64,000 bases of DNA from Escherichia phage vB_EcoP-101114BS3: sequence record MZ234015.1; one strand, written 5' to 3'. Shown in pieces: positions 3,047 through 42,992 of this stretch. Position 1 is the stretch's first letter. Every line of letters begins with the position of its first letter. The translations under genes and the position numbers were made by a program. The notes beneath the pieces were generated by a model. The model searched no databases, was not told the origin of the DNA, and was given only the letters and a program-made list of their open reading frames with translations.

Positions 3047-3270
3047 TATAAGATCTCCCTTTGTTTAGCGTTAATGACTGACATTGCTGTGATTGGATTA
3101 TTTGTTCCGAGATACTCTAGAACAGGTGGACTGCTAACTGGTTTATCAGCCTCCACATAATTCTTAACCTTGCCACCAAGAACCGCTAGAGAAGCCTGAG
3201 CTTCCGCTTCATCATAGTGAATTCGGTCAACTGTTTTCTTTCCAATCCTATAAGTGTGAACGTAAATCAT
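3046..3270 (-). CDS. hypothetical protein
   Basis: 74-aa ORF. Confidence 0.4.
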   Translation of the reverse strand: MIYVHTYRIGKKTVDRIHYDEAEAQASLAVLGGKVKNYVEADKPVSSPPVLEYLGTNNPITAMSVINAKQREIL

Positions 3271-3473
3271 TTAACTTCCTCAATATCAACTAATTCAAAA
3301 CTTCCTATTTCTTCAAGCTTAATAATCTCTTTAACTTTCTCAACAGCTTTAATAGGGTTTTCTTCTTCTACAACTTTACACCCTGATACTTCAAGACTGC
3401 CTGTTCCACGAAGGTATAAATTCAACTTATAAACTACTTTGTAGTATCTCATCGTGCTCCCAATTTCTTTCAT
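3267..3473 (-). CDS. hypothetical protein
   Basis: 68-aa ORF, 4-nt overlap with neighbour. Confidence 0.4.
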   Translation of the reverse strand: MKEIGSTMRYYKVVYKLNLYLRGTGSLEVSGCKVVEEENPIKAVEKVKEIIKLEEIGSFELVDIEEVK

Positions 3474-3642
3474 AATATCCAGAGTTGTAGTTTAGGGCGC
3501 ATTTCTCGGCCTCTTCTATGTCGTCTGTGTTTAGGATATTAACCCAACCACCAACTTCATCAAAACCCTCTTCTACCTCATTGAACCACACGCTGTATTT
3601 CTTCATCTTGATAAGACCCTTCCCCAATCCTTGATGTAACAT
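3427..3642 (-). CDS. small acidic protein, paralog of 2692..2928
   Basis: Shared motif with 2692..2928. Confidence 0.45.
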   Translation of the reverse strand: MLHQGLGKGLIKMKKYSVWFNEVEEGFDEVGGWVNILNTDDIEEAEKCALNYNSGYYERNWEHDEILQSSL

Positions 3643-3778
3643 CGACCATCAACCCACTTGGTCTCTGATTTAAACTTTTGAGAGATTCTTGTTTCACAGT
3701 CTTCTTTACTGTAATCACCAAGAGCATCCATCACCCAAAGAAACAGAGCAATTACAATAGACCAGATTAGAAACTTCT

Positions 3779-4171
3779 TCATCGTATCACCAGAGGCTCT
3801 TCAGAGTACACAGGAGAGGTTATTTCTACCGGAGGTGCTGCTCTAAGGTCATTAAGCCTTACGCCCTTCAGCATACCATCTAGGTGGTCCATTTTAGGGA
3901 TACCTACAGGGAAGTCATCAATCCAAACATCCACAAAGAAACCCAAGCTCTGAGTGACGGAATCCTTCTGAACACCATTGCAAAAGATAACAGGAATATC
4001 TAGACTTGCTGCATCTGCTAGAAGCTCCTCATTTGAATACCCATTAGGTTGAGCAAAACGATAGGTGACAATACGTACATCATGTCCACGAGATTTCATA
4101 AGACCTACAATGTGGGTCCACATCTCTTTGTCCACTGTAAAAGTGTCATCATAATCTAAACCAATATTCAT
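3779..4171 (-). CDS. HAD-superfamily hydrolase-like protein (possible nucleotidase)
   Basis: N-terminal IGLDYDDTFT matches HAD motif I DxDxT. Confidence 0.45.
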   Translation of the reverse strand: MNIGLDYDDTFTVDKEMWTHIVGLMKSRGHDVRIVTYRFAQPNGYSNEELLADAASLDIPVIFCNGVQKDSVTQSLGFFVDVWIDDFPVGIPKMDHLDGMLKGVRLNDLRAAPPVEITSPVYSEEPLVIR

Positions 4172-4182
4172 ATTAGCCTCTT

Positions 4183-4210
4183 AGACAAGAAAAGCCACCC
4201 GAAGGTAGCT
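4183..4210 (-). terminator. terminator-like hairpin (minus strand)
   Basis: AGCCACC-CGAA-GGTAGCT stem-loop (1 mismatch) followed by U-rich tract on minus strand; same sequence family as 855..880. Confidence 0.45.
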
Positions 4211-4455
4211 TATTTATTCTGTGTTTCCAGTTCGCTGATACGAACTTTCAAACCGTTAATCTCAGCCTGAGCAGCTTCTAGTTTAATTAGAGCTTCTTCA
4301 GCGTCAGCTTCTGTTTGAAGAACCGCAGTGGTTAGTTCGTATAAAGCTTGGCGGAGAGAATCTTTTCCCATAGCATGAATCTGTGCAACAAAGAATTGCT
4401 TACCTTCCGTGGTTTCCAAAGTCTCTTTTAATTCTTTAGATGTTAAAGTCATCAT
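4210..4455 (-). CDS. hypothetical coiled-coil protein
   Basis: 81-aa ORF, helical heptad-like sequence. Confidence 0.5.
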   Translation of the reverse strand: MMTLTSKELKETLETTEGKQFFVAQIHAMGKDSLRQALYELTTAVLQTEADAEEALIKLEAAQAEINGLKVRISELETQNK

Positions 4456-9529: not shown

Positions 9530-10005
9530 TCCAAAACCCTTTCTTCTAAATCATAAAAGATTTGATTTGTCCCATTATTCTCAACAAGCACTGTTCCATT
9601 ATCTAGCAGGGTAGCAACTTGGGAATAAGGAATGTTCTTTAACATCAGAGCATTAATGGTCGGCTTGTTTTTGAAGTAAGCGACAGGCTCAACATAGAAG
9701 GAAATCCCACGACTTCCTTTAATTGGGGTGCTTGAAGATAGAACCCAAATTGTTTCTGGCTTGTCTATTTCCTTTTCAACACCAACCTCAACAAGAGAGT
9801 CAGCAGCGAAACCTACAGGACGCCTAGAAGAACCAAGCAACCGAACATATCCCGGTAATTTTGACATATTAGACCAACTACCAGTGTTTTCATTAAACAC
9901 AGGTCTTACATCACCATATGCCCAAACCAGATTATCATAGTCACGGGCTATGTATTTAACCCAATCAGGAACATCATACTCCCTTCCTTCAAAAATAGCT
10001 TTCAT
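9526..10005 (-). CDS. hypothetical protein
   Basis: 159-aa ORF. Confidence 0.5.
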   Translation of the reverse strand: MKAIFEGREYDVPDWVKYIARDYDNLVWAYGDVRPVFNENTGSWSNMSKLPGYVRLLGSSRRPVGFAADSLVEVGVEKEIDKPETIWVLSSSTPIKGSRGISFYVEPVAYFKNKPTINALMLKNIPYSQVATLLDNGTVLVENNGTNQIFYDLEERVLE

Positions 10006-35942: not shown

Positions 35943-36180
35943 GACCTGAAAGAGTGAACATGACCTCACTCATTTAAGAATCCTCGTAAAGACTCTTAAA
36001 AAAGAGGCCTCGTTAAAGGCCCGGTCAAATGACCATCCAATAGGGATTGAACCATGCCAATGATTCACAAAGGGAGTTCCCTTTAGGTATCACTAGCTAC
36101 GCAAAAAGCCGCACAAAGGCGGCAGACAAAGACGCTCAAGAAGAGCGTCATAGTAGTTGACCACTGGTCCAGAAGAGGGC

Positions 36181-36624
36181 TTACTTAACTCTTGCTGTTT
36201 TGAGTGGGTCAATATATTTTTCAACTCCCCACTTATGTTTACTATCAGCGTAGAAAACATCTGGTGCACATTGGCTAGTAGTAGGAAATGCTTTCGGTGG
36301 CTTAGTGCTACCTTTATTCTTCTGCTTACCTTTAGTGCGACCATTACAAAAGATTTCTAAACGTTTTTCTTGTTCTGTTTTTGCTGCACCATTGGTTAAC
36401 AGAGAACGCTTGTGATCAGCAAGAAGAAGCGCATCAGCACGATGAACACGACGACCTAACACCTTCGCTACGGTAGAAGGTTTATGTTCTTGAGCGGCTT
36501 GTTTGATAGCTCTTCGTTTAAGGCTACGTTTGCTAATATGGTTAACAGCGGCTGGCTTTTCTTTTTCCAGCTCATTCATAGAGAACACTCGTCCGCCTTT
36601 CATGCTGATTTTAGATTTAGCCAT
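36181..36624 (-). CDS. basic protein (Lys/Arg-rich)
   Basis: 147-aa ORF. Confidence 0.5.
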   Translation of the reverse strand: MAKSKISMKGGRVFSMNELEKEKPAAVNHISKRSLKRRAIKQAAQEHKPSTVAKVLGRRVHRADALLLADHKRSLLTNGAAKTEQEKRLEIFCNGRTKGKQKNKGSTKPPKAFPTTSQCAPDVFYADSKHKWGVEKYIDPLKTARVK

Positions 36625-36694
36625 TGTTTTATTCCTTTCGCTGATAAATTATATCATGCAAGCCTTACCACATAGCAAGGCTTAACCAAATAAC

Positions 36695-36904
36695 TTAATC
36701 AATTAAACTAAACGATTTCCAACTACGTGTAATTGCTACCTTTTCGCCATCAAAGAGAACACTTACAGAGATCAGTTTACCGCGACAACTGGATACCGTG
36801 GTAATACGTCCGGTTAATGCCTTACCTTTATTCAGGTAGTGATAGCGGACACGACGTCCTAACAAACGAGTAGCTTTCTTCTCTAACGTGCTTAAGCTGG
36901 TCAT
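36695..36904 (-). CDS. hypothetical protein
   Basis: 69-aa ORF. Confidence 0.45.
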   Translation of the reverse strand: MTSLSTLEKKATRLLGRRVRYHYLNKGKALTGRITTVSSCRGKLISVSVLFDGEKVAITRSWKSFSLID

Positions 36905-37125
36905 TAAATAGCCCCTTTATGTTGGAGTGATCTTACACGACGATACATAACAGTTGATGCACTAATCGCCGCTTGTTTTCTTTCGTGCTCATGCTGATTC
37001 TTTCGAATCTTATCCATCTCGGCATCATTACGACGACGTTGTAAGATTCTGCTACATTTGCGATGGTTGTTATTAGCACGTGCTTTCTTACAGATAGGGC
37101 AAAGGTGGGATTGAGTTAAAATCAT
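36904..37125 (-). CDS. small basic zinc-finger-like protein
   Basis: CPIC...C motifs, Arg-rich. Confidence 0.45.
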   Translation of the reverse strand: MILTQSHLCPICKKARANNNHRKCSRILQRRRNDAEMDKIRKNQHEHERKQAAISASTVMYRRVRSLQHKGAI

Positions 37126-37346
37126 TTGCGAAGCCCTAACTTACGAAGGAATCGGCCTAGCTTAGTTTCCTGCGTGATAGTGTAAGTAACAGAGTTTTCA
37201 ATCAATGCTTGTTCTTGAATCGGCGACGGATACCACTCGCCAGTAAGAATGCATTTGCATTCGATTCCGTATTTATCGGTTTTACGATATGTCATGTTGT
37301 TGAGAATGTTACGATACATCTTAACTTCTGTTTTCAGTTTTGGCAT
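37122..37346 (-). CDS. hypothetical protein
   Basis: 74-aa ORF. Confidence 0.45.
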   Translation of the reverse strand: MPKLKTEVKMYRNILNNMTYRKTDKYGIECKCILTGEWYPSPIQEQALIENSVTYTITQETKLGRFLRKLGLRK

Positions 37347-37454
37347 GGTGTTTATCTCTTTTTAGTTTCTTTGATTAGTACACTGAATCAATGCACTAGT
37401 AAAAGAAAAGGCGCTACCCTTTCGAATAGCGCCTTATGTGTTCTTTATTGTTGG

Positions 37455-38357
37455 TTATGCTGCCTGTTGGCGTGCTGCCATGATTTCGGCAGCTTTGCGC
37501 AACACTTCTTCTTCTTCCTGCGCAGCTTTCTCGTTCGCTTTGATAGTTGAAGCATTTGAGATGCGACCACGAAGGTTAGACAATTTTTCAGTCATTTCGT
37601 TGATCGCTTTTTCCATTTCATCAGCGTATGAGTCCAGAGATTCAAGCTCTTTAGTCGAGGCATTAATCAGGTAGTCGTCGCTGATAGATACAGTTGATGC
37701 GGTCACTTTCTTAAGGAGTGAATCGAAAGTTTTCTTAACTTTGCCTACTTCTTCACTCAATGCGATAGTATTGTCAGAAGATGCGCCGTTGCGTTCATCT
37801 GCCAGTAGTGCCGCTTCAATACGGATTGCAGCCAGACGGTCAACCAGTGCATAAATATCCTGATTAAAGTTTTCGTTAACCTTCTGGTTGATTTGATTTG
37901 CTACCGGAACATTGTCGTTGCAACCTTTGTAGAATGCTGGGTTATCAACCTGCACGTCTTCACCTTTAGCAAAGCGTTCAAAGGAATTAGACCAGCGGGC
38001 GCGGTTTTGTTCCATTTTGGCCTTAACTTGTTCCGGTTTAGCATCCTCTTTCGCTTTCGCTTCACCTTCCAGATTAATCCATTTCTTTTTACCGTTCGCC
38101 CCGTCAGTGTTATATTTGATAGGAGTAAGGAAAGAGATTGCAACCGAAATTACATCTAAATCACGATAACGCTCAGTTAACAAGAAATCAACCGCCGCCT
38201 GCAATACATCCAGTTTCTTACCGTTGGTGCGGAAGTGCTGCAAATGGCCTAACAGGAAGTTAGAAACATCTTGTTTGATTGCCGCGTTGTTGCTACGAAT
38301 GTTGTTAGCCAGTGCATTAAAGCCGGATTCGTTAACCAGATTAAAAACTTTAGCCAT
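37455..38357 (-). CDS. hypothetical protein (300 aa), probably highly expressed
   Basis: Start moved to MAKVF (RBS AAAGGTG); codon usage rich in CGT/CTG; first gene after 1.3-kb ORF-free region. Confidence 0.6.
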   Translation of the reverse strand: MAKVFNLVNESGFNALANNIRSNNAAIKQDVSNFLLGHLQHFRTNGKKLDVLQAAVDFLLTERYRDLDVISVAISFLTPIKYNTDGANGKKKWINLEGEAKAKEDAKPEQVKAKMEQNRARWSNSFERFAKGEDVQVDNPAFYKGCNDNVPVANQINQKVNENFNQDIYALVDRLAAIRIEAALLADERNGASSDNTIALSEEVGKVKKTFDSLLKKVTASTVSISDDYLINASTKELESLDSYADEMEKAINEMTEKLSNLRGRISNASTIKANEKAAQEEEEVLRKAAEIMAARQQAA

Positions 38358-38366
38358 GATATTCAC

Positions 38367-39692
38367 CTTTCAATTGTAAGGGCACTATGCCCCGCTCTCT
38401 ATGAGCTTTTTAAGTCACTATTGACTTATCAATAATCACTCAATATCAAGTAATTATTGATAAGCGAGGCGGTCTTATCAGGAGTTAACCTTGCCGCCTC
38501 CTTATCCGTGATGTTTCATCTGGTATCTTTAATTAGTCGCTATAAATAAAGCCGACCTGATAGCGATGATCAATCATCACAATAAGGCAGTGCGTCCGAC
38601 TCTATTTAATTACTTTATCGTAACCGTCGGCAATATCGTCTACTTTGCTTTCGCTCCCGCCTATCCTTTTGTACTAACTCTCAATCGCTAACCATCGCCC
38701 ACTACGGGAGGTTATTGCGAAAGAGTCATTAGCCGTCTAATACATTGACGTTTTATATCTTTCAGCAGGTTTACTACATAAACTGATTATGTACGCCATC
38801 AATAGTGGCCTCAAATCATTCACATCGTAAACGTTCACACTAAACCTTATTGTTAAATAGCAATTTGCCACTTTTTAACCATTCACCGCCGCCCCCAATT
38901 GGGCGTTAATTCGTCGGATTTGCCTACCCTGATAAACTTCTTTCACTGTAGCACCTTGTTAGCGATGGCCGCCGCTACCCTTTAACCGTGGGCGATTAGT
39001 TTAGGCCGTTGCGTGTACTCAATGAATCCGTTTTATCAGTGGTGACGTTTCCAGTTAAGGGATTGTAAAAACTGTTTACCCTGATAATTTAGGGAGTCTT
39101 ACGCCGTTTTATCTGGTATGTTTTCCGATGGTTATTATCATCCAACATATTCAACCGATATAGGAGAATGTTTAAATTGTTAAAGAGCGGTAAATCTATC
39201 AGTGTGCTTTCTCACACTATGCAACTGTTAGCCGTTGTTACGCTTTTCTTAAGCGGTGAATTGCTTAAGTGTGCTCATTATGAATCATGCTGTTTTAGCT
39301 GTCAACCGCTTTTTTAATCTTTTTCGTCGTTCCCTTTATTGGGAGGATATATCAATCAGCTATATTTGATTGAAGATTAAGCGGTAAGGCTTAACTCACG
39401 ATTCATATTTTTAAAGAGCGGTGTTTCTTACTGCTTGGTGAACATTCTATCAGAGTATTTCACCTTGTCAACTCTTTTTATCATCTTCTTTTATTCTATT
39501 CCCTTATCTCGCTTGAATCTATGCGAAAGGGCAAGATGATAAATTGTTAAAGAGCGGGGCACTAAGTGCCGGATGTTTCAAGTCATCGCTGACCGTGTGA
39601 ACATCTTATCATAATGATTCGATGTGTCAACAACTATTTTTCGATTAATGCATCTTGATAAACTAGCGACCGTTAAGGCCGCTAACCTTACC
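38367..39692. other. 1.3-kb ORF-free, hairpin-rich region with repeated 17-mer
   Basis: No ORF of 60 aa or more in any frame; exact 17-mer AAATTGTTAAAGAGCGG at 39174..39190 and 39541..39557 plus partial copies; several perfect inverted repeats. Confidence 0.5.
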
Positions 39693-39893
39693 TTAGTTCA
39701 TACGTTTAAAGGTTAAATCTTTATCTGTACTTACCAGCGATAACACCGCAATAGCTTTGCCTTTATCGGCATCGGCTACCATCTCTTTTGCCTGCTGTAA
39801 TGTACTACCGACTATTCTCATAATCATGTTAGTAACGTTAATGCTAGTGCAAGTGATTTGCGTGTCTTTGCTTGAGAAGGTGTAGATGTTCAT
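39693..39893 (-). CDS. hypothetical protein
   Basis: Start moved to MNIYTF (RBS GAGGA). Confidence 0.45.
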   Translation of the reverse strand: MNIYTFSSKDTQITCTSINVTNMIMRIVGSTLQQAKEMVADADKGKAIAVLSLVSTDKDLTFKRMN

Positions 39894-40206
39894 TGATAAA
39901 TCCTCGTTATGGCATGGTTGAGAGTTTATCAAGATACACTAATCGAATTATTAAAGAGCAAGGCTAAACATCTAGCCTATCAGGAGGTAACTTACTGCAT
40001 CACGTCCTGATAAGATTCAATATACACTATCCTAAAACCGTTGCAAGTCTTTTTCTAAAATAATTTCACTTTCTTTTAGGCATAAAGGAACGAACACACG
40101 AATAACATCAAGGGAGGAAGAAAACAAGCTCTATAATCGAAATCTAGGCACATAGGAAGCATCCTAGCGAGCTAAACAGGGGCAAGATGTGCAATCACCT
40201 TAGAAA

Positions 40207-40232
40207 TGAAAAAAGCGCCTCAAAAGGGCGCT
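40207..40232 (-). terminator. rho-independent terminator (minus strand)
   Basis: AGCGCC-7 nt-GGCGCT hairpin with A6 run on plus side, i.e. U6 after hairpin on minus. Confidence 0.55.
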
Positions 40233-40252
40233 TAGAGAGTCTTACGGATTGG

Positions 40253-40579
40253 TTACGGATTGGTGCAAGTGCCGTTACCGGATGATATTTCGTTCATCGA
40301 CTCATCGAACAACGTCATGCTAGACCGCATCATGTGATCTATAGTGATTTGCTTTCCGGTAATTTCGTTAACAAGCATTGCAGACTTACTATCAACTATC
40401 TTGCTGTCGTAGTCGTTCAGGTCAATCAATACTACCTTGCTGGACTTCTTGCCAGTGTCGTAGTTTTCCATAAGATAGGTGCATTGCAGACCATCTAAAC
40501 TAGCCTCGTTGAATACGGCAGCATAGGACACGGAAGAAATAGCGAACAAAGCAGAACATACAGCTAATTTAATTTTCAT
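40253..40579 (-). CDS. secreted protein (signal peptide)
   Basis: MKIKLAVCSALFAISSVSYA signal-like N-terminus. Confidence 0.5.
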   Translation of the reverse strand: MKIKLAVCSALFAISSVSYAAVFNEASLDGLQCTYLMENYDTGKKSSKVVLIDLNDYDSKIVDSKSAMLVNEITGKQITIDHMMRSSMTLFDESMNEISSGNGTCTNP

Positions 40580-40671
40580 GATCCAACCCTTAAGCGGAAC
40601 GTGCAACAAAGAAAAACAAGTCATAGATAAATGCTATGATACAGAGAACTAACAGACAATGCAAAAAATAC

Positions 40672-40944
40672 TTATGTAACATTACTCACCACTTTATCTA
40701 GATGATCATCGAACGTTTCACAAATGGATTGCACTTCGTCAATATCTAGTAACAGACCGTGACGGGCAAAGAATTGAGCTAACTCAAGATAATCCGCACC
40801 AATAAGCATGACACCATTGAAAGGGGCGATCTTAACATCTTGAGATGTTACCAATAATAAATTACCAATATCAGCAATAGCGTCATAATTCAGCGTAACG
40901 CCTACACCGTAATTGTGTGTTTCAATAATGGCAATAGTTTCCAT
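40672..40944 (-). CDS. hypothetical protein
   Basis: 90-aa ORF. Confidence 0.45.
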   Translation of the reverse strand: METIAIIETHNYGVGVTLNYDAIADIGNLLLVTSQDVKIAPFNGVMLIGADYLELAQFFARHGLLLDIDEVQSICETFDDHLDKVVSNVT

Positions 40945-40946
40945 CG

Positions 40947-41195
40947 TTAATTATCCTCGACGGTTAGTAGTTCTTCCAGTGACAAACCGGATTTAACCAG
41001 CAAATCACGATATTCGTTAGCATCCATCGGATCGAGGCCGGATAATCGGGCAACGGTCATGCGTGCATGTGCTGAAGACAAGGAAGCTAAAGCACGGATA
41101 GGGATCAATACAAGCCCATATTTACCGCTGATAACTAAATCACCGTGCTGGATGCACATATGAGCATTTACTACGATTGCAAATGATTCATTCAC
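40947..41195 (-). CDS. hypothetical protein
   Basis: 82-aa ORF. Confidence 0.45.
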   Translation of the reverse strand: MNESFAIVVNAHMCIQHGDLVISGKYGLVLIPIRALASLSSAHARMTVARLSGLDPMDANEYRDLLVKSGLSLEELLTVEDN

Positions 41196-41692
41196 TGGAT
41201 AGCCTCACAATTAGCAAAGTTAATAAAGGTTGTATAAACTGCTACACCGTCATGATATGCAGTCGTAGCGAGTATGGTTTCACTTACATCACCATAGCTA
41301 ACGAGATTAGTTACAAACTGTAATTTCTCTTTCTCAACCTTCTGATACAGAGAATACGTCACCATATCGTGATCACTATCAGCACGTTTCAATTTAATGA
41401 CTGACTGAGTGCCGGATTTCTCGCCCAATGGGGTAAGAGTGACACGCACATTAGCGGTAGTGACTTCATTGAAGTGAACACGCCAGAATGCATCATTGCC
41501 ATCACTTCCAACGTCACGGCAAGCCATATCAGGAGCGTTCTTAAATGTGCTAACAAAAGATTGCAGACCAGTAGGAGCGGATAACCTCTTATCATCTTTA
41601 GCCTGCACATTGGTAGCGATAGCACTAACACCGATAGCTGCAACCAGTGCATAAGACGCTAGATTGATAGCCTGCATTGCTTTGATAGCCAT
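41192..41692 (-). CDS. secreted protein (signal peptide)
   Basis: MAIKAMQAINLASYALVAAIGVSAIATNVQA signal-like N-terminus. Confidence 0.5.
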   Translation of the reverse strand: MAIKAMQAINLASYALVAAIGVSAIATNVQAKDDKRLSAPTGLQSFVSTFKNAPDMACRDVGSDGNDAFWRVHFNEVTTANVRVTLTPLGEKSGTQSVIKLKRADSDHDMVTYSLYQKVEKEKLQFVTNLVSYGDVSETILATTAYHDGVAVYTTFINFANCEAIQ

Positions 41693-41970
41693 TATTACTA
41701 CTCCTGATAGATGAAAGATTGTTTGTCGTGTGTAGTTACTTAGGCTGATCAACCTTCACTACTCACTATCACCGCTAACTACTTTACATCACTGCTTCAT
41801 TAACGATAATTCAAACTACGATTGCAACTATATATTAAAGGAAAAACATGTCAACCACTTATTTTCAAACTCTTTCATAACTCACTGAATATAAAAGGAA
41901 TTTAATTTACTAAACTTTCTTACTCAGAGATACAGCTTACCAAATAGATGTTATTTTATAACACTTACAG

Positions 41971-42070
41971 AACGGGTAGCAGACCAACGGGATAGATAGA
42001 TGGGTAAGACGTGCCGCATAGGTTAGCCAATGGGTAAGAAGCCTAACGAGGAAGGGGAAACGGGTAGGAT
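41971..42070. repeat. iteron-like direct repeat array 1
   Basis: GGGTA at 41974, 42002, 42032, 42062 (spacing 28-30 bp). Confidence 0.5.
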
Positions 42071-42430
42071 ATAATGTAAGTTAGTTACAGGTAACAGGTC
42101 AGACCATGCGGTAATAAATTACCAGTCAAATTCCTACTCATCAAAAGAAAAAAGAAACGCTGAAAAAAGAAAAGAATAAAAGAAAGAATAAAAATAATAA
42201 CTAAAGTAAACAACTACCAGTCTAATGATACATACATCAATAATCCACTCATGAAACATTAACATAGGTTATTACTATTAAACTTGGGGTAGTGTGAGGA
42301 TTGTTATAATTGCATGGTGTTACCATTACTAACCTCACTATGATAGCCCTTACTATTAGCCCTCTTATTATCACCCCTTAACAGTACATCAGAGTCTAGC
42401 CTTTCATCCTTCCTTAACATGAGTAGAAGA

Positions 42431-42540
42431 AATACGGGTGGGATATTACTGGTTAGATATACATGGGTAAATAATGCATGTGTAATATCAATGGGTAGGG
42501 TATTTATGGGTAGGGATACCACTGGTAGCAGGTAGGGCAA
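42431..42540. repeat. iteron-like direct repeat array 2
   Basis: GGGT(A/G) at 42436, 42465, 42493, 42508. Confidence 0.5.
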
Positions 42541-42706
42541 GGCTTAGAGCTTAAAGGCTGATTGATTTCCTAAAGGCAATTGCATTGGTAATAACCCTTT
42601 TTTAAATGAGGACTCCCCCTTTTTAGGAAACGCGCTCGGAGAGGCTAGGTCCATCCGGTCAAATTGAAATTTTAAACTGTTATATATAAGCATAAGGAAT
42701 AACTTA

Positions 42707-42871
42707 ATGTGGAAATTGAAGATGATTATTCGTCAGATCAAATGTCAACATGAATACTACCCGATACGAATATCAAGAGGTGATGAACGATTACACGCTT
42801 ATTACAAGAGTACATGGAGATGTGCAGACTGTGGTAAGGTGAGGAATAGTAAATGGGTGGATAGGCCTTAA
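42707..42871 (+). CDS. small zinc-ribbon-like protein (54 aa), first plus-strand gene
   Basis: Below ORF-track cutoff; RBS AGGAA 8 nt upstream; C.H ... C..CG pattern like the 32278..32855 family. Confidence 0.35.
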   Translation: MWKLKMIIRQIKCQHEYYPIRISRGDERLHAYYKSTWRCADCGKVRNSKWVDRP

Positions 42872-42992
42872 CATGACATGGCCTTTATGGGTATGCCTTA
42901 ATGTGGGGTAGCCTTTATGAAGTCCCCTTTACTTCAGCGTACATGGGTTTATACATGGGTGGGCCTTTAGATGAGTACGCCTTTATGGGTTG
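42851..42992. repeat. iteron-like direct repeat array 3
   Basis: GCCTTTATGGGT at 42881 and 42979, related copies at 42911 and 42962, ACATGGGT at 42941 and 42953. Confidence 0.5.

Follow-up and report, generated by a model that had tools for sequence, protein, structure and literature searches.

The subject of this article is a gene-free region in the genome of Escherichia phage vB_EcoP-101114BS3 (record MZ234015.1), which lies between positions 38367 and 39692 of the 64,000-nucleotide (nt) stretch of DNA that we analysed and that is called the window throughout. In our view, and judging from its sequence, this region is probably the control and leader part of an early minus-strand transcription unit built like an Escherichia coli ribosomal RNA (rRNA) operon. 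Tandem promoter sequences of the host sigma70 type are each followed, within a short distance, by a candidate copy of boxA, the RNA site that the host proteins NusB and S10 bind, and these promoter-boxA modules appear to drive one large multi-domain RNA of about 800 nt that is predicted to be encoded at 39176-38379 on the minus strand.

We read the region on the minus strand because the genes that flank it all lie there, and because phiEco32 has an unannotated gap of about 1.9 kilobases (kb) at the corresponding position. A preliminary description of this DNA had taken it in the plus-strand direction, which has to be turned around, since every feature reported here is on the minus strand. Its account of the composition is sound, in that there is no open reading frame (ORF) of 60 or more amino acids (aa) in 38367-39692, the largest being 49-54 aa, and in that the region is not AT-rich (GC content 0.398 versus 0.417 for the window) and has raised CG dinucleotides (48.3 per kb versus a mean of 31.6, within the top 3.5% of equal-sized windows). 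A scan of the window found no transfer RNA. The region that we used as a query is 100% identical, over the query, to Escherichia phage vB_EcoP-101114UKE3 and 79-99% identical to 96 other phiEco32-like coliphage records (Gordonclarkvirinae), most of which have nothing annotated in the stretch.

Promoters and candidate boxA sites

The repeated 17-mer to which the preliminary description had drawn attention, AAATTGTTAAAGAGCGG, does occur exactly at 39174-39190 and 39541-39557, and together with a copy carrying two mismatches at 39405-39421 it amounts to three matches where 0.17 would be expected, a number that none of 100 shuffles reached. On the minus strand it reads CCGCTCTTTAACAATTT, and the core of this reading, GCTCTTTAACAA, recurs on that strand with at most one mismatch at 39188, 39419, 39555 and 39959. 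The published consensus of functional Nus-factor BoxA sites in gamma-proteobacteria is GYTCTTTAANA. It has five exact matches in the window against 0.63 expected, and four of them are found on the minus strand within 39178-39959, at those same four positions; the fifth, at 9634, is antisense within a gene and is taken as chance. The partial copies that had been listed at 39411..39421 and 39948..39957 are likewise real, and both are exact boxA matches on the minus strand. The copies vary at a single position (C, A or T), to which the consensus assigns N, and the copy at 39555 has 19 consecutive nt, GCTCTTTAACAATTTATCA, in common with the E. coli rrnB leader. On these grounds the 17-mer is a candidate Nus-factor boxA of the type found in rRNA (rrn) operons. 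Its position downstream of each predicted promoter, and its match to the RNA site of host NusB/S10, indicate that it is not itself a promoter.

The promoter sequences are just as consistent in their strand. The best four sigma70-type matches of a 7-kb stretch, as returned by a consensus scan, are all on the minus strand and three of them fall inside the gene-free region; these three follow the pattern TTGACA-16/17-TAnnAT at 10-11 of 12 positions and are conserved in 16 relatives, and the -35 and -10 hexamers of the promoter nearest to the large RNA, P1, are almost invariant in these 16 phages. Each of the four boxA copies lies 18-82 nt downstream of a transcription start, the starts being predicted, so that boxA is placed shortly past a predicted sigma70 promoter and outside any translated ORF, an arrangement conserved in 26 phages. 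The promoter array as such is already known, because the SU10 genome paper reports three sigma70 promoters in this spacer, as in phiEco32. An array of phage-specific promoters or factor-binding sites had been among the preliminary suggestions, and the array does exist, but its promoters are of the host sigma70 type and its 17-mer is a boxA match.

Three of the four modules here have a hairpin 1-12 nt on the 5' side of boxA, and most copies in the relatives are likewise preceded by one; this is the place that the boxB hairpin occupies in the architecture of rrn leaders. The hairpins had earlier been said to follow each copy of the motif; three of the four copies do have one close by, but in the direction of transcription it precedes the motif. 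The boxB-like stem at 39218-39201 (helix 4 of the consensus fold described below) is 100% paired, has compensatory changes in three of its six pairs and keeps a purine-rich loop. In most distant relatives, the hairpin ahead of the last boxA carries the loop AGAAAG or GUAGAAA, which is reminiscent of the boxB loop of rrnB, GAGAAAAAG.

Our comparison set consists of 26 related phages, namely 16 coliphage relatives and 10 distant metagenomic contigs that were reached via homologues, at 45-69% identity, of the gp124-like protein (PHROG 13018) encoded next to the region. All 26 keep between two and six modules, even where the neighbouring protein is only 45% identical. All 16 coliphages have three to six promoter-boxA modules separated by sequences that differ, and all 10 distant contigs have two or three exact boxA copies upstream of the gp124 homologue, within gene-free gaps of about 1.0-3.4 kb, the last copy being 870-971 nt from the start codon of that homologue in every one. 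Conservation of the repeats and hairpins in related phages, for which comparative alignment had been proposed as a check, is seen both in the modules of all 26 and in the covarying helices to which we come below. In three of the metagenomic relatives the gene-free gap upstream of the gp124 homologue is 2.7-3.4 kb, much longer than in the coliphages, the additional 1.5-2 kb being located upstream of the first boxA. Scans of IMG/VR for more relatives returned only known isolates and one contig.

The multiplication of boxA could be given a quite different meaning, which is that the copies act mainly as a sponge, drawing NusB, S10 and SuhB away from the rRNA operons of the host and thereby serving host shut-off. 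Three to six copies per genome, on transcripts from very strong promoters, would suit such a role, as would the autoregulation of Nus factor levels via boxA in E. coli, which suggests that the pool is limiting. However, one boxA per promoter, near the start, is precisely what loading onto the polymerase requires, and T7 manages with a single copy, so we think a sponge unlikely.

A predicted large structured RNA

In the alignment that runs from P1 to the start of the gp124-like gene, compensatory changes are visible by eye. RNAalifold, run on 16 sequences, returns a consensus fold of -251.7 kcal/mol whose 42 helices contain 240 pairs, 81 of them with changes on both sides. Pairing is canonical in 98.9% of cells, compared with 35-46% when the partners are slid by one to three columns, and none of 500 shuffles reached the observed pairing or covariation score. 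The fold also has a strand, in that G-U cells number 401 and A-C cells 13, and the opposite strand manages only 88.8% canonical pairs and -154 kcal/mol. Pairing that is specific for one strand therefore argues against an element that acts as DNA, and it fixes the direction, which is that of the promoters. Compensatory pairs, specificity for one strand and the lack of any conserved ORF are together what one expects of a structured RNA.

These figures also bear on the suggestion, made in the preliminary description, that the region is a replication origin, and on the wider idea of a DNA-level element, made up of iterons and hairpins, in which a DNA-binding protein of the phage or the host recognises the 17-mers. 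Some phage origins do have repeated motifs where genes are lacking and strong promoters are close by. Against this stand the strand-specific pairing, a GC content of 0.40 that is near the genome mean and in no way AT-rich, and the motif itself, which is the host RNA boxA consensus down to its degenerate position and always comes just downstream of a promoter on the transcribed strand. In addition, there is a better candidate for a genome end or origin elsewhere, so that an origin here seems very improbable to us. This candidate is a set of eight TACCCRT copies at 41972-42893 on the minus strand, four of which are regularly spaced at 28-30 base pairs (bp) (41972, 42000, 42030, 42060) and three of which fall within 42463-42512. 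Around the repeats the DNA is AT-rich and poor in ORFs, the genes change orientation and the cumulative GC skew turns, and the deposited genome end is near window position 42453 (offset from the GenBank record); the stretch is likely to be a terminal-repeat, packaging or origin element.

Within the large RNA, the domains of which are set out in Table 1, helix 5 deserves particular mention. It has 12 pairs, three of them compensatory, is 97.4% paired and spans about 290 nt, and its 5' strand begins directly after boxA. Covarying helices 5, 6, 12 and 20-22 all join positions about 290 nt apart, and the Shine-Dalgarno sequence and the ATG at 38357 come directly after the terminal hairpins. Two inverted repeats had been singled out in the preliminary description. 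GAGGCGG/CCGCCTC (38500-38466) is a real helix, helix 37, with compensatory changes in five of seven pairs; TGATAAG/CTTATCA exists as a repeat, yet the consensus fold joins CTTATCA to another partner further downstream (helix 39, 38459-38430). An inverted partial copy of the 17-mer, placed at 38380-38398, comes down to 7 nt (CCGCTCT on the plus strand) that are indeed there but lie within two covarying RNA hairpins and make no further site. We also considered, and dropped, a pairing of boxA with the complementary minus-strand AGAGCGG of these positions (38392-38386). As many as 9 bp would be possible, CCGCUCUUU with AGAGAGCGG, linking the 5' and 3' ends of the RNA; the pairing is not conserved in the distant relatives and it competes with a covarying hairpin.

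Two further observations concern the middle of the RNA. A degenerate boxA look-alike, GCTATTTAACAA, with one mismatch, lies at 38850-38861 on the minus strand, in the hairpin between domains 1 and 2, and almost all of the coliphage relatives keep it; since its mismatch falls on a conserved C of the consensus, it is unlikely to work as a boxA. In phage LAMP, an unrelated, AT-rich segment longer by about 35 nt takes the place of part of domain 2 (alignment columns about 540-625), and because the rest of the RNA is retained in spite of this swap, we take the replaced part to lie at the periphery of the fold and to tolerate change.

A cluster of structured non-coding RNAs was the other reading offered at the outset, and it was right as far as the 3' 800 nt are concerned, which are structured RNA, but the helices that span about 290 nt describe one large multi-domain molecule and not several small ones. 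Separate small RNAs, one for each promoter, would account for the presence of several promoters and many local hairpins, and the short stretches of leader from P3 to P2 and from P2 to P1 could build up as small RNAs. Yet between 39176 and 38500 on the minus strand there is only a weak promoter-like match (9 of 12 positions, 38814-38786) and no terminator-like site, the covarying helices just mentioned tie distant positions together, and the last boxA keeps a distance of 870-971 nt from the gene. We thus hold a set of independent small RNAs to be improbable.

How far does the RNA extend beyond the coliphages? A covariance model of its 3' 170 nt, which we call R1, matches all 10 distant loci with E-values from 4e-31 to 6e-7, and in each case the match sits a short way upstream of the gp124 homologue. 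The resulting alignment shows compensatory change in 39 of 45 pairs and pairing in 98.1% of cells, with slid controls at 31-43%, figures to be read in the knowledge that an alignment fitted by the model favours the structure. As a control of specificity we used 536 kb of metagenome DNA that had been retrieved with a 14-base pattern, an unspecific scan in which one of 80 loci was genuine among the matches listed; R1 found a single match in it, a close relative, and nothing else. Islands of single-stranded sequence stay conserved even where the identity of the neighbouring protein has dropped to 45-53%.

The RNA does not belong to any family that we could match. Rfam 15, which includes GOLLD, ROOL, OLE, ribozymes and riboswitches, gave no match at E<=1 in window positions 36000-42000 and none at E<=0.1 in seven distant loci, so that the covariance-model search proposed in the preliminary description came back without a family. 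The large RNA is unrelated to rRNA, and a host origin was rejected, there being no blastn match in 5,426 E. coli genomes. Coding potential was rejected too. Among transcribed-strand ORFs of at least 25 aa, none is position-conserved across the 16 phages and three phages have none at all; the antisense ORFs that recur are missing in several relatives, and such recurrence is expected at 80-90% DNA identity. One record, MZ234017, carries seven 'hypothetical proteins' of 30-49 aa, on both strands, across the RNA and promoters (3158-4417, equivalent to window 38457-39716). Because no transcribed-strand ORF is conserved and the antisense ORFs are absent from several relatives, we reject these small coding sequences (CDSs), which are probably over-predictions.

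Table 1. The predicted transcription unit, with its boundaries and neighbouring genes (positions in the window)
Feature	Position	Strand	Remarks
Intrinsic-terminator-like hairpin and T-run after the preceding gene	40213..40233	-	AAGCGCCCTTTTGAGGCGCTT then TTTTTCATTTC; upstream boundary of the unit
Predicted promoter P4	40019..40046	-	TTGCAA-16-TATATT; weakest, 9/12 consensus positions; upstream of boxA-4 and the 66-aa ORF
Two leader hairpins directly 5' of boxA-4	39962..40012	-	-21.2 kcal/mol, z = -3.05; the second ends 2 nt before boxA
Candidate boxA-4	39948..39959	-	GCTCTTTAATAA; exact GYTCTTTAANA match
Small ORF, 66 aa	39693..39893	-	Annotated as CDS in SU7 and PAS59
Predicted promoter P3	39603..39630	-	TTGACA-16-TAAGAT; TG before -10, A-rich stretch upstream; conserved in relatives
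Hairpin abutting boxA-3	39558..39570	-	GGCAC-UUA-GUGCC
Candidate boxA-3	39541..39557	-	17-mer CCGCTCTTTAACAATTT; 19 nt GCTCTTTAACAATTTATCA as in the rrnB leader
Predicted promoter P2	39444..39471	-	TTGACA-16-TAGAAT; TG before -10; conserved in relatives
Candidate boxA-2	39405..39421	-	CCGCTCTTTAAAAATAT; about 18 nt past the predicted start; no preceding hairpin
Predicted promoter P1	39277..39305	-	TTGACA-17-CATAAT; A-tract just upstream, AAAAAGATTAAAAAAG; consensus scan
P1 leader hairpins	39200..39269	-	Include the boxB-like 39218-39201 (AGUGUG-AGAAAG-CACACU)
Candidate boxA-1	39174..39190	-	17-mer; last copy ahead of the large RNA
Large RNA, domain 1	38874..39176	-	Closed by helix 5; inner helices 6-18
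Hairpin between domains 1 and 2	38873-38855	-	
Large RNA, domain 2	38853-38579	-	Closed by stacked helices 20-22 (about 23 bp); has a GAAA tetraloop hairpin
Large RNA, third domain	38578-38510	-	Followed by terminal hairpins down to 38379; with these it makes up the 3' part, 38379..38578
gp124-like gene, 300 aa	37455..38369	-	PHROG 13018; Shine-Dalgarno AAGGTGA 38369-38363, ATG 38357
Intrinsic-terminator-like hairpin and T-run right after the gp124-like gene	37408..37435	-	Downstream boundary of the unit

The gp124-like gene is directly downstream of the large RNA in all relatives, and the SU7 record has a terminator annotated at the position that matches the one closing the unit here. The 66-aa ORF has no family match. 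Just downstream of the unit, at 36904-37125 on the minus strand, there are several very basic small proteins (isoelectric points 9.7-11.2), one of which has the arginine-rich stretch RILQRRRNDAEMDKIRKNQ. This loosely recalls the arginine-rich motif of lambdoid N proteins, and as pure speculation one might imagine it binding the boxB-like hairpins; among seven neighbouring proteins that were scanned, a search that was not exhaustive, there is no member of an N-like family.

How the unit might work

From the sequence matches, positions, conservation, covariation and strand that we observe, we infer Nus-factor binding, antitermination and assisted folding in the following manner. The strong promoters P3, P2 and P1, together with the weaker P4 ahead of the small ORF, would fire leftward in tandem, and each transcript would bear a boxA 18-82 nt from its start, usually just after a hairpin and hence in the rrn order of boxB then boxA. 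The boxA RNA would bind host NusB-S10 which, with NusA, NusG and SuhB, would make the polymerase resistant to Rho and to pausing, as on rRNA operons. The modified polymerase would then cross about 800 nt of untranslated RNA, followed by the gp124-like gene, until it met the terminator at 37435-37408. Both the rrn antitermination complex and the boxA-anchored pairing of leader and trailer have been described, the leader order being boxB then boxA, and according to the paper on the complex boxA stays bound at the RNA exit channel, where it is thought to hold the leader strand until the distant partner emerges. Because boxA holds the leader strand at the exit channel in this way, a boxA-tethered complex could also help helix 5 to close while the phage RNA is being made, much as has been proposed for the 16S leader-trailer helix.

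It might be objected that the 800-nt RNA is no more than an outsized 5' leader that acts in cis on the gp124-like gene, concerned with translation control or with the stability of the early messenger RNA, and has no independent role. No terminator separates the RNA from the Shine-Dalgarno sequence and ATG that it runs into, RNA and gene are adjacent in every relative, and the terminator directly past the gene closes the unit. On the other hand, some 240 conserved pairs, several closed domains and long-range helices go far beyond what known bacterial leaders need, the single-stranded islands are conserved where the neighbouring protein is just 45-53% identical, and three to six tandem strong promoters point to a very high output of RNA. 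We are therefore doubtful of a leader and nothing more. We lean instead towards an RNA that acts in trans or as a scaffold, more than towards a plain 5' untranslated region. A fuller version of this idea, which we put forward tentatively, is that phiEco32-like phages and their wider uncultured relatives have a new class of large RNA whose synthesis copies that of rRNA, with strong promoters in tandem and boxB-boxA signals, that these signals would recruit the host complex for rRNA antitermination and chaperoning, which would protect the transcript and fold it during synthesis, and that the RNA would have a role in trans early in infection, for example as scaffold or decoy for a factor of the host or the phage, possibly with the gp124 protein encoded beside it; our analyses of the gp124-like protein (PHROG 13018) yielded no functional clue.

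There are several points that speak against a unit built and run like an rRNA operon, and it is fair to collect them here. Promoter activity in this phage is predicted from consensus matches together with reports for relatives. The hairpins before boxA differ among the modules and P2 has none, and because of this we use 'boxB' as a positional analogy only. The rrn element boxC (UCUGUGUGGG, 18-19 nt after boxA) has no match with up to two mismatches in 38300-40100; its counterpart might be seen, by functional analogy only, in the strand after boxA that forms the long-range helix 5. The large RNA is G-rich and not C-rich (GC skew of the plus strand -0.17 to -0.26) and heavily folded, and a G-rich, folded RNA is a poor loading substrate for Rho, so the need for antitermination is not self-evident. 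In the right-end 12 kb of Salmonella phage 7-11, which is more remotely related and follows the same general strategy of transcription, there is no boxA and no R1 match. Lastly, when the distant relatives are compared by plain sequence alignment, pairing in domains 1 and 2 is only partly kept, at 25-81% per helix. This could reflect misalignment or real divergence, and because the pairing is partial in this set, the extent to which the whole fold is conserved is less certain than that of its 3' part.

Relation to known systems and what it would mean

The nearest model for the arrangement is the rrn leader of E. coli, where tandem promoters P1 and P2 are followed by boxB, boxA and boxC and where the complex consists of NusA, NusB, NusE, NusG, SuhB and S4. 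As in that leader, strong sigma70 promoters stand in tandem in the phage, with A/T-rich sequence upstream of them; soon after the start come a hairpin and boxA, in that order; the boxA is identical over 16-19 nt to the rrnB leader; a long untranslated, highly structured RNA follows downstream; and just as boxC enters the leader-trailer helix, so the phage strand next to boxA enters a long-range helix. The differences are that the phage region has no boxC, that it has one boxA per promoter where the rrn leader has a single shared copy, that its long-range helix spans about 290 nt compared with about 1700 nt in rrn, and that its RNA, being unrelated to rRNA, is followed by a protein gene. The likeness, it should be said, is one that we know from sequence.

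The nearest parallel among phages is T7, which at 812-824 has an exact rrn-type boxA, CGCTCTTTAACAA, located 63 nt past the start of A3, the third of its tandem early promoters, and about 100 nt before gene 0.3. T7, too, is a lytic coliphage that relies on host polymerase for its early genes and has three tandem sigma70 promoters near a genome end, and because of its exact boxA past A3, a layout of tandem early promoters and boxA is common to two unrelated groups of lytic coliphages. Unlike the phiEco32-like phage, T7 has one boxA for A1, A2 and A3, only about 100 nt before its first gene and no large structured RNA, R1 being negative in T7 as it was in phage 7-11.

The nut sites of lambda resemble the phage modules in having a boxA of CGCTCTT type beside a hairpin with a purine-rich loop, and their action is processive antitermination via NusB/S10. 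The modules are not nut sites of the lambda type, however, since the hairpin is upstream of boxA, whereas lambda has boxA, then boxB, and an N protein; the phage boxA is also a full-length rrn-type one. Large structured RNAs such as GOLLD, ROOL and OLE are found in phages and bacteria, and the RNA described here is like them in being several hundred nt long, in its multi-domain fold with covariation and in being borne by a phage; it differs in having no match in Rfam 15, in its hosts and in its context, which is an early operon leader with boxA. CRISPR arrays and the suhB leader are examples of non-coding transcripts that boxA protects. They share with the phage a long untranslated transcript that begins with a consensus boxA and could otherwise be open to termination by Rho, and they are unlike it in that the phage RNA is elaborately structured and the boxA copies have been multiplied along with the promoters.

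phiEco32 is a model for the control of host RNA polymerase by a phage, and close relatives are available in the BASEL collection, so the nus, suhB and rho tools that exist for E. coli K-12 can be used to test the proposals made here. Literature searches returned no paper that treats phiEco32 together with boxA, and among papers on phiEco32 and non-coding RNA or on Kuravirus and RNA no title or abstract dealing with the RNA described here, and we found no report of the boxA sites or the large RNA in the literature on this phage group, two primary phiEco32 papers being outside the reach of the search. The paper on Salmonella phage 7-11 states that the antitermination strategy of that phage 'remains to be defined'. 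If the boxA copies work as we suppose, they would supply an antitermination mechanism that had previously been undefined for this phage group, and we would have a lytic phage that turns the rRNA machinery to its own use with no N-like protein, as may be true of T7 as well.

At a practical level, several GenBank records carry up to seven spurious small 'hypothetical proteins' across the large RNA. This RNA would be a large structured RNA not described before, carried by a coliphage that is easy to grow, and it would offer a natural, non-ribosomal substrate with which to ask whether the rrn complex is a general chaperone of RNA folding and what role is played by the boxB hairpin.

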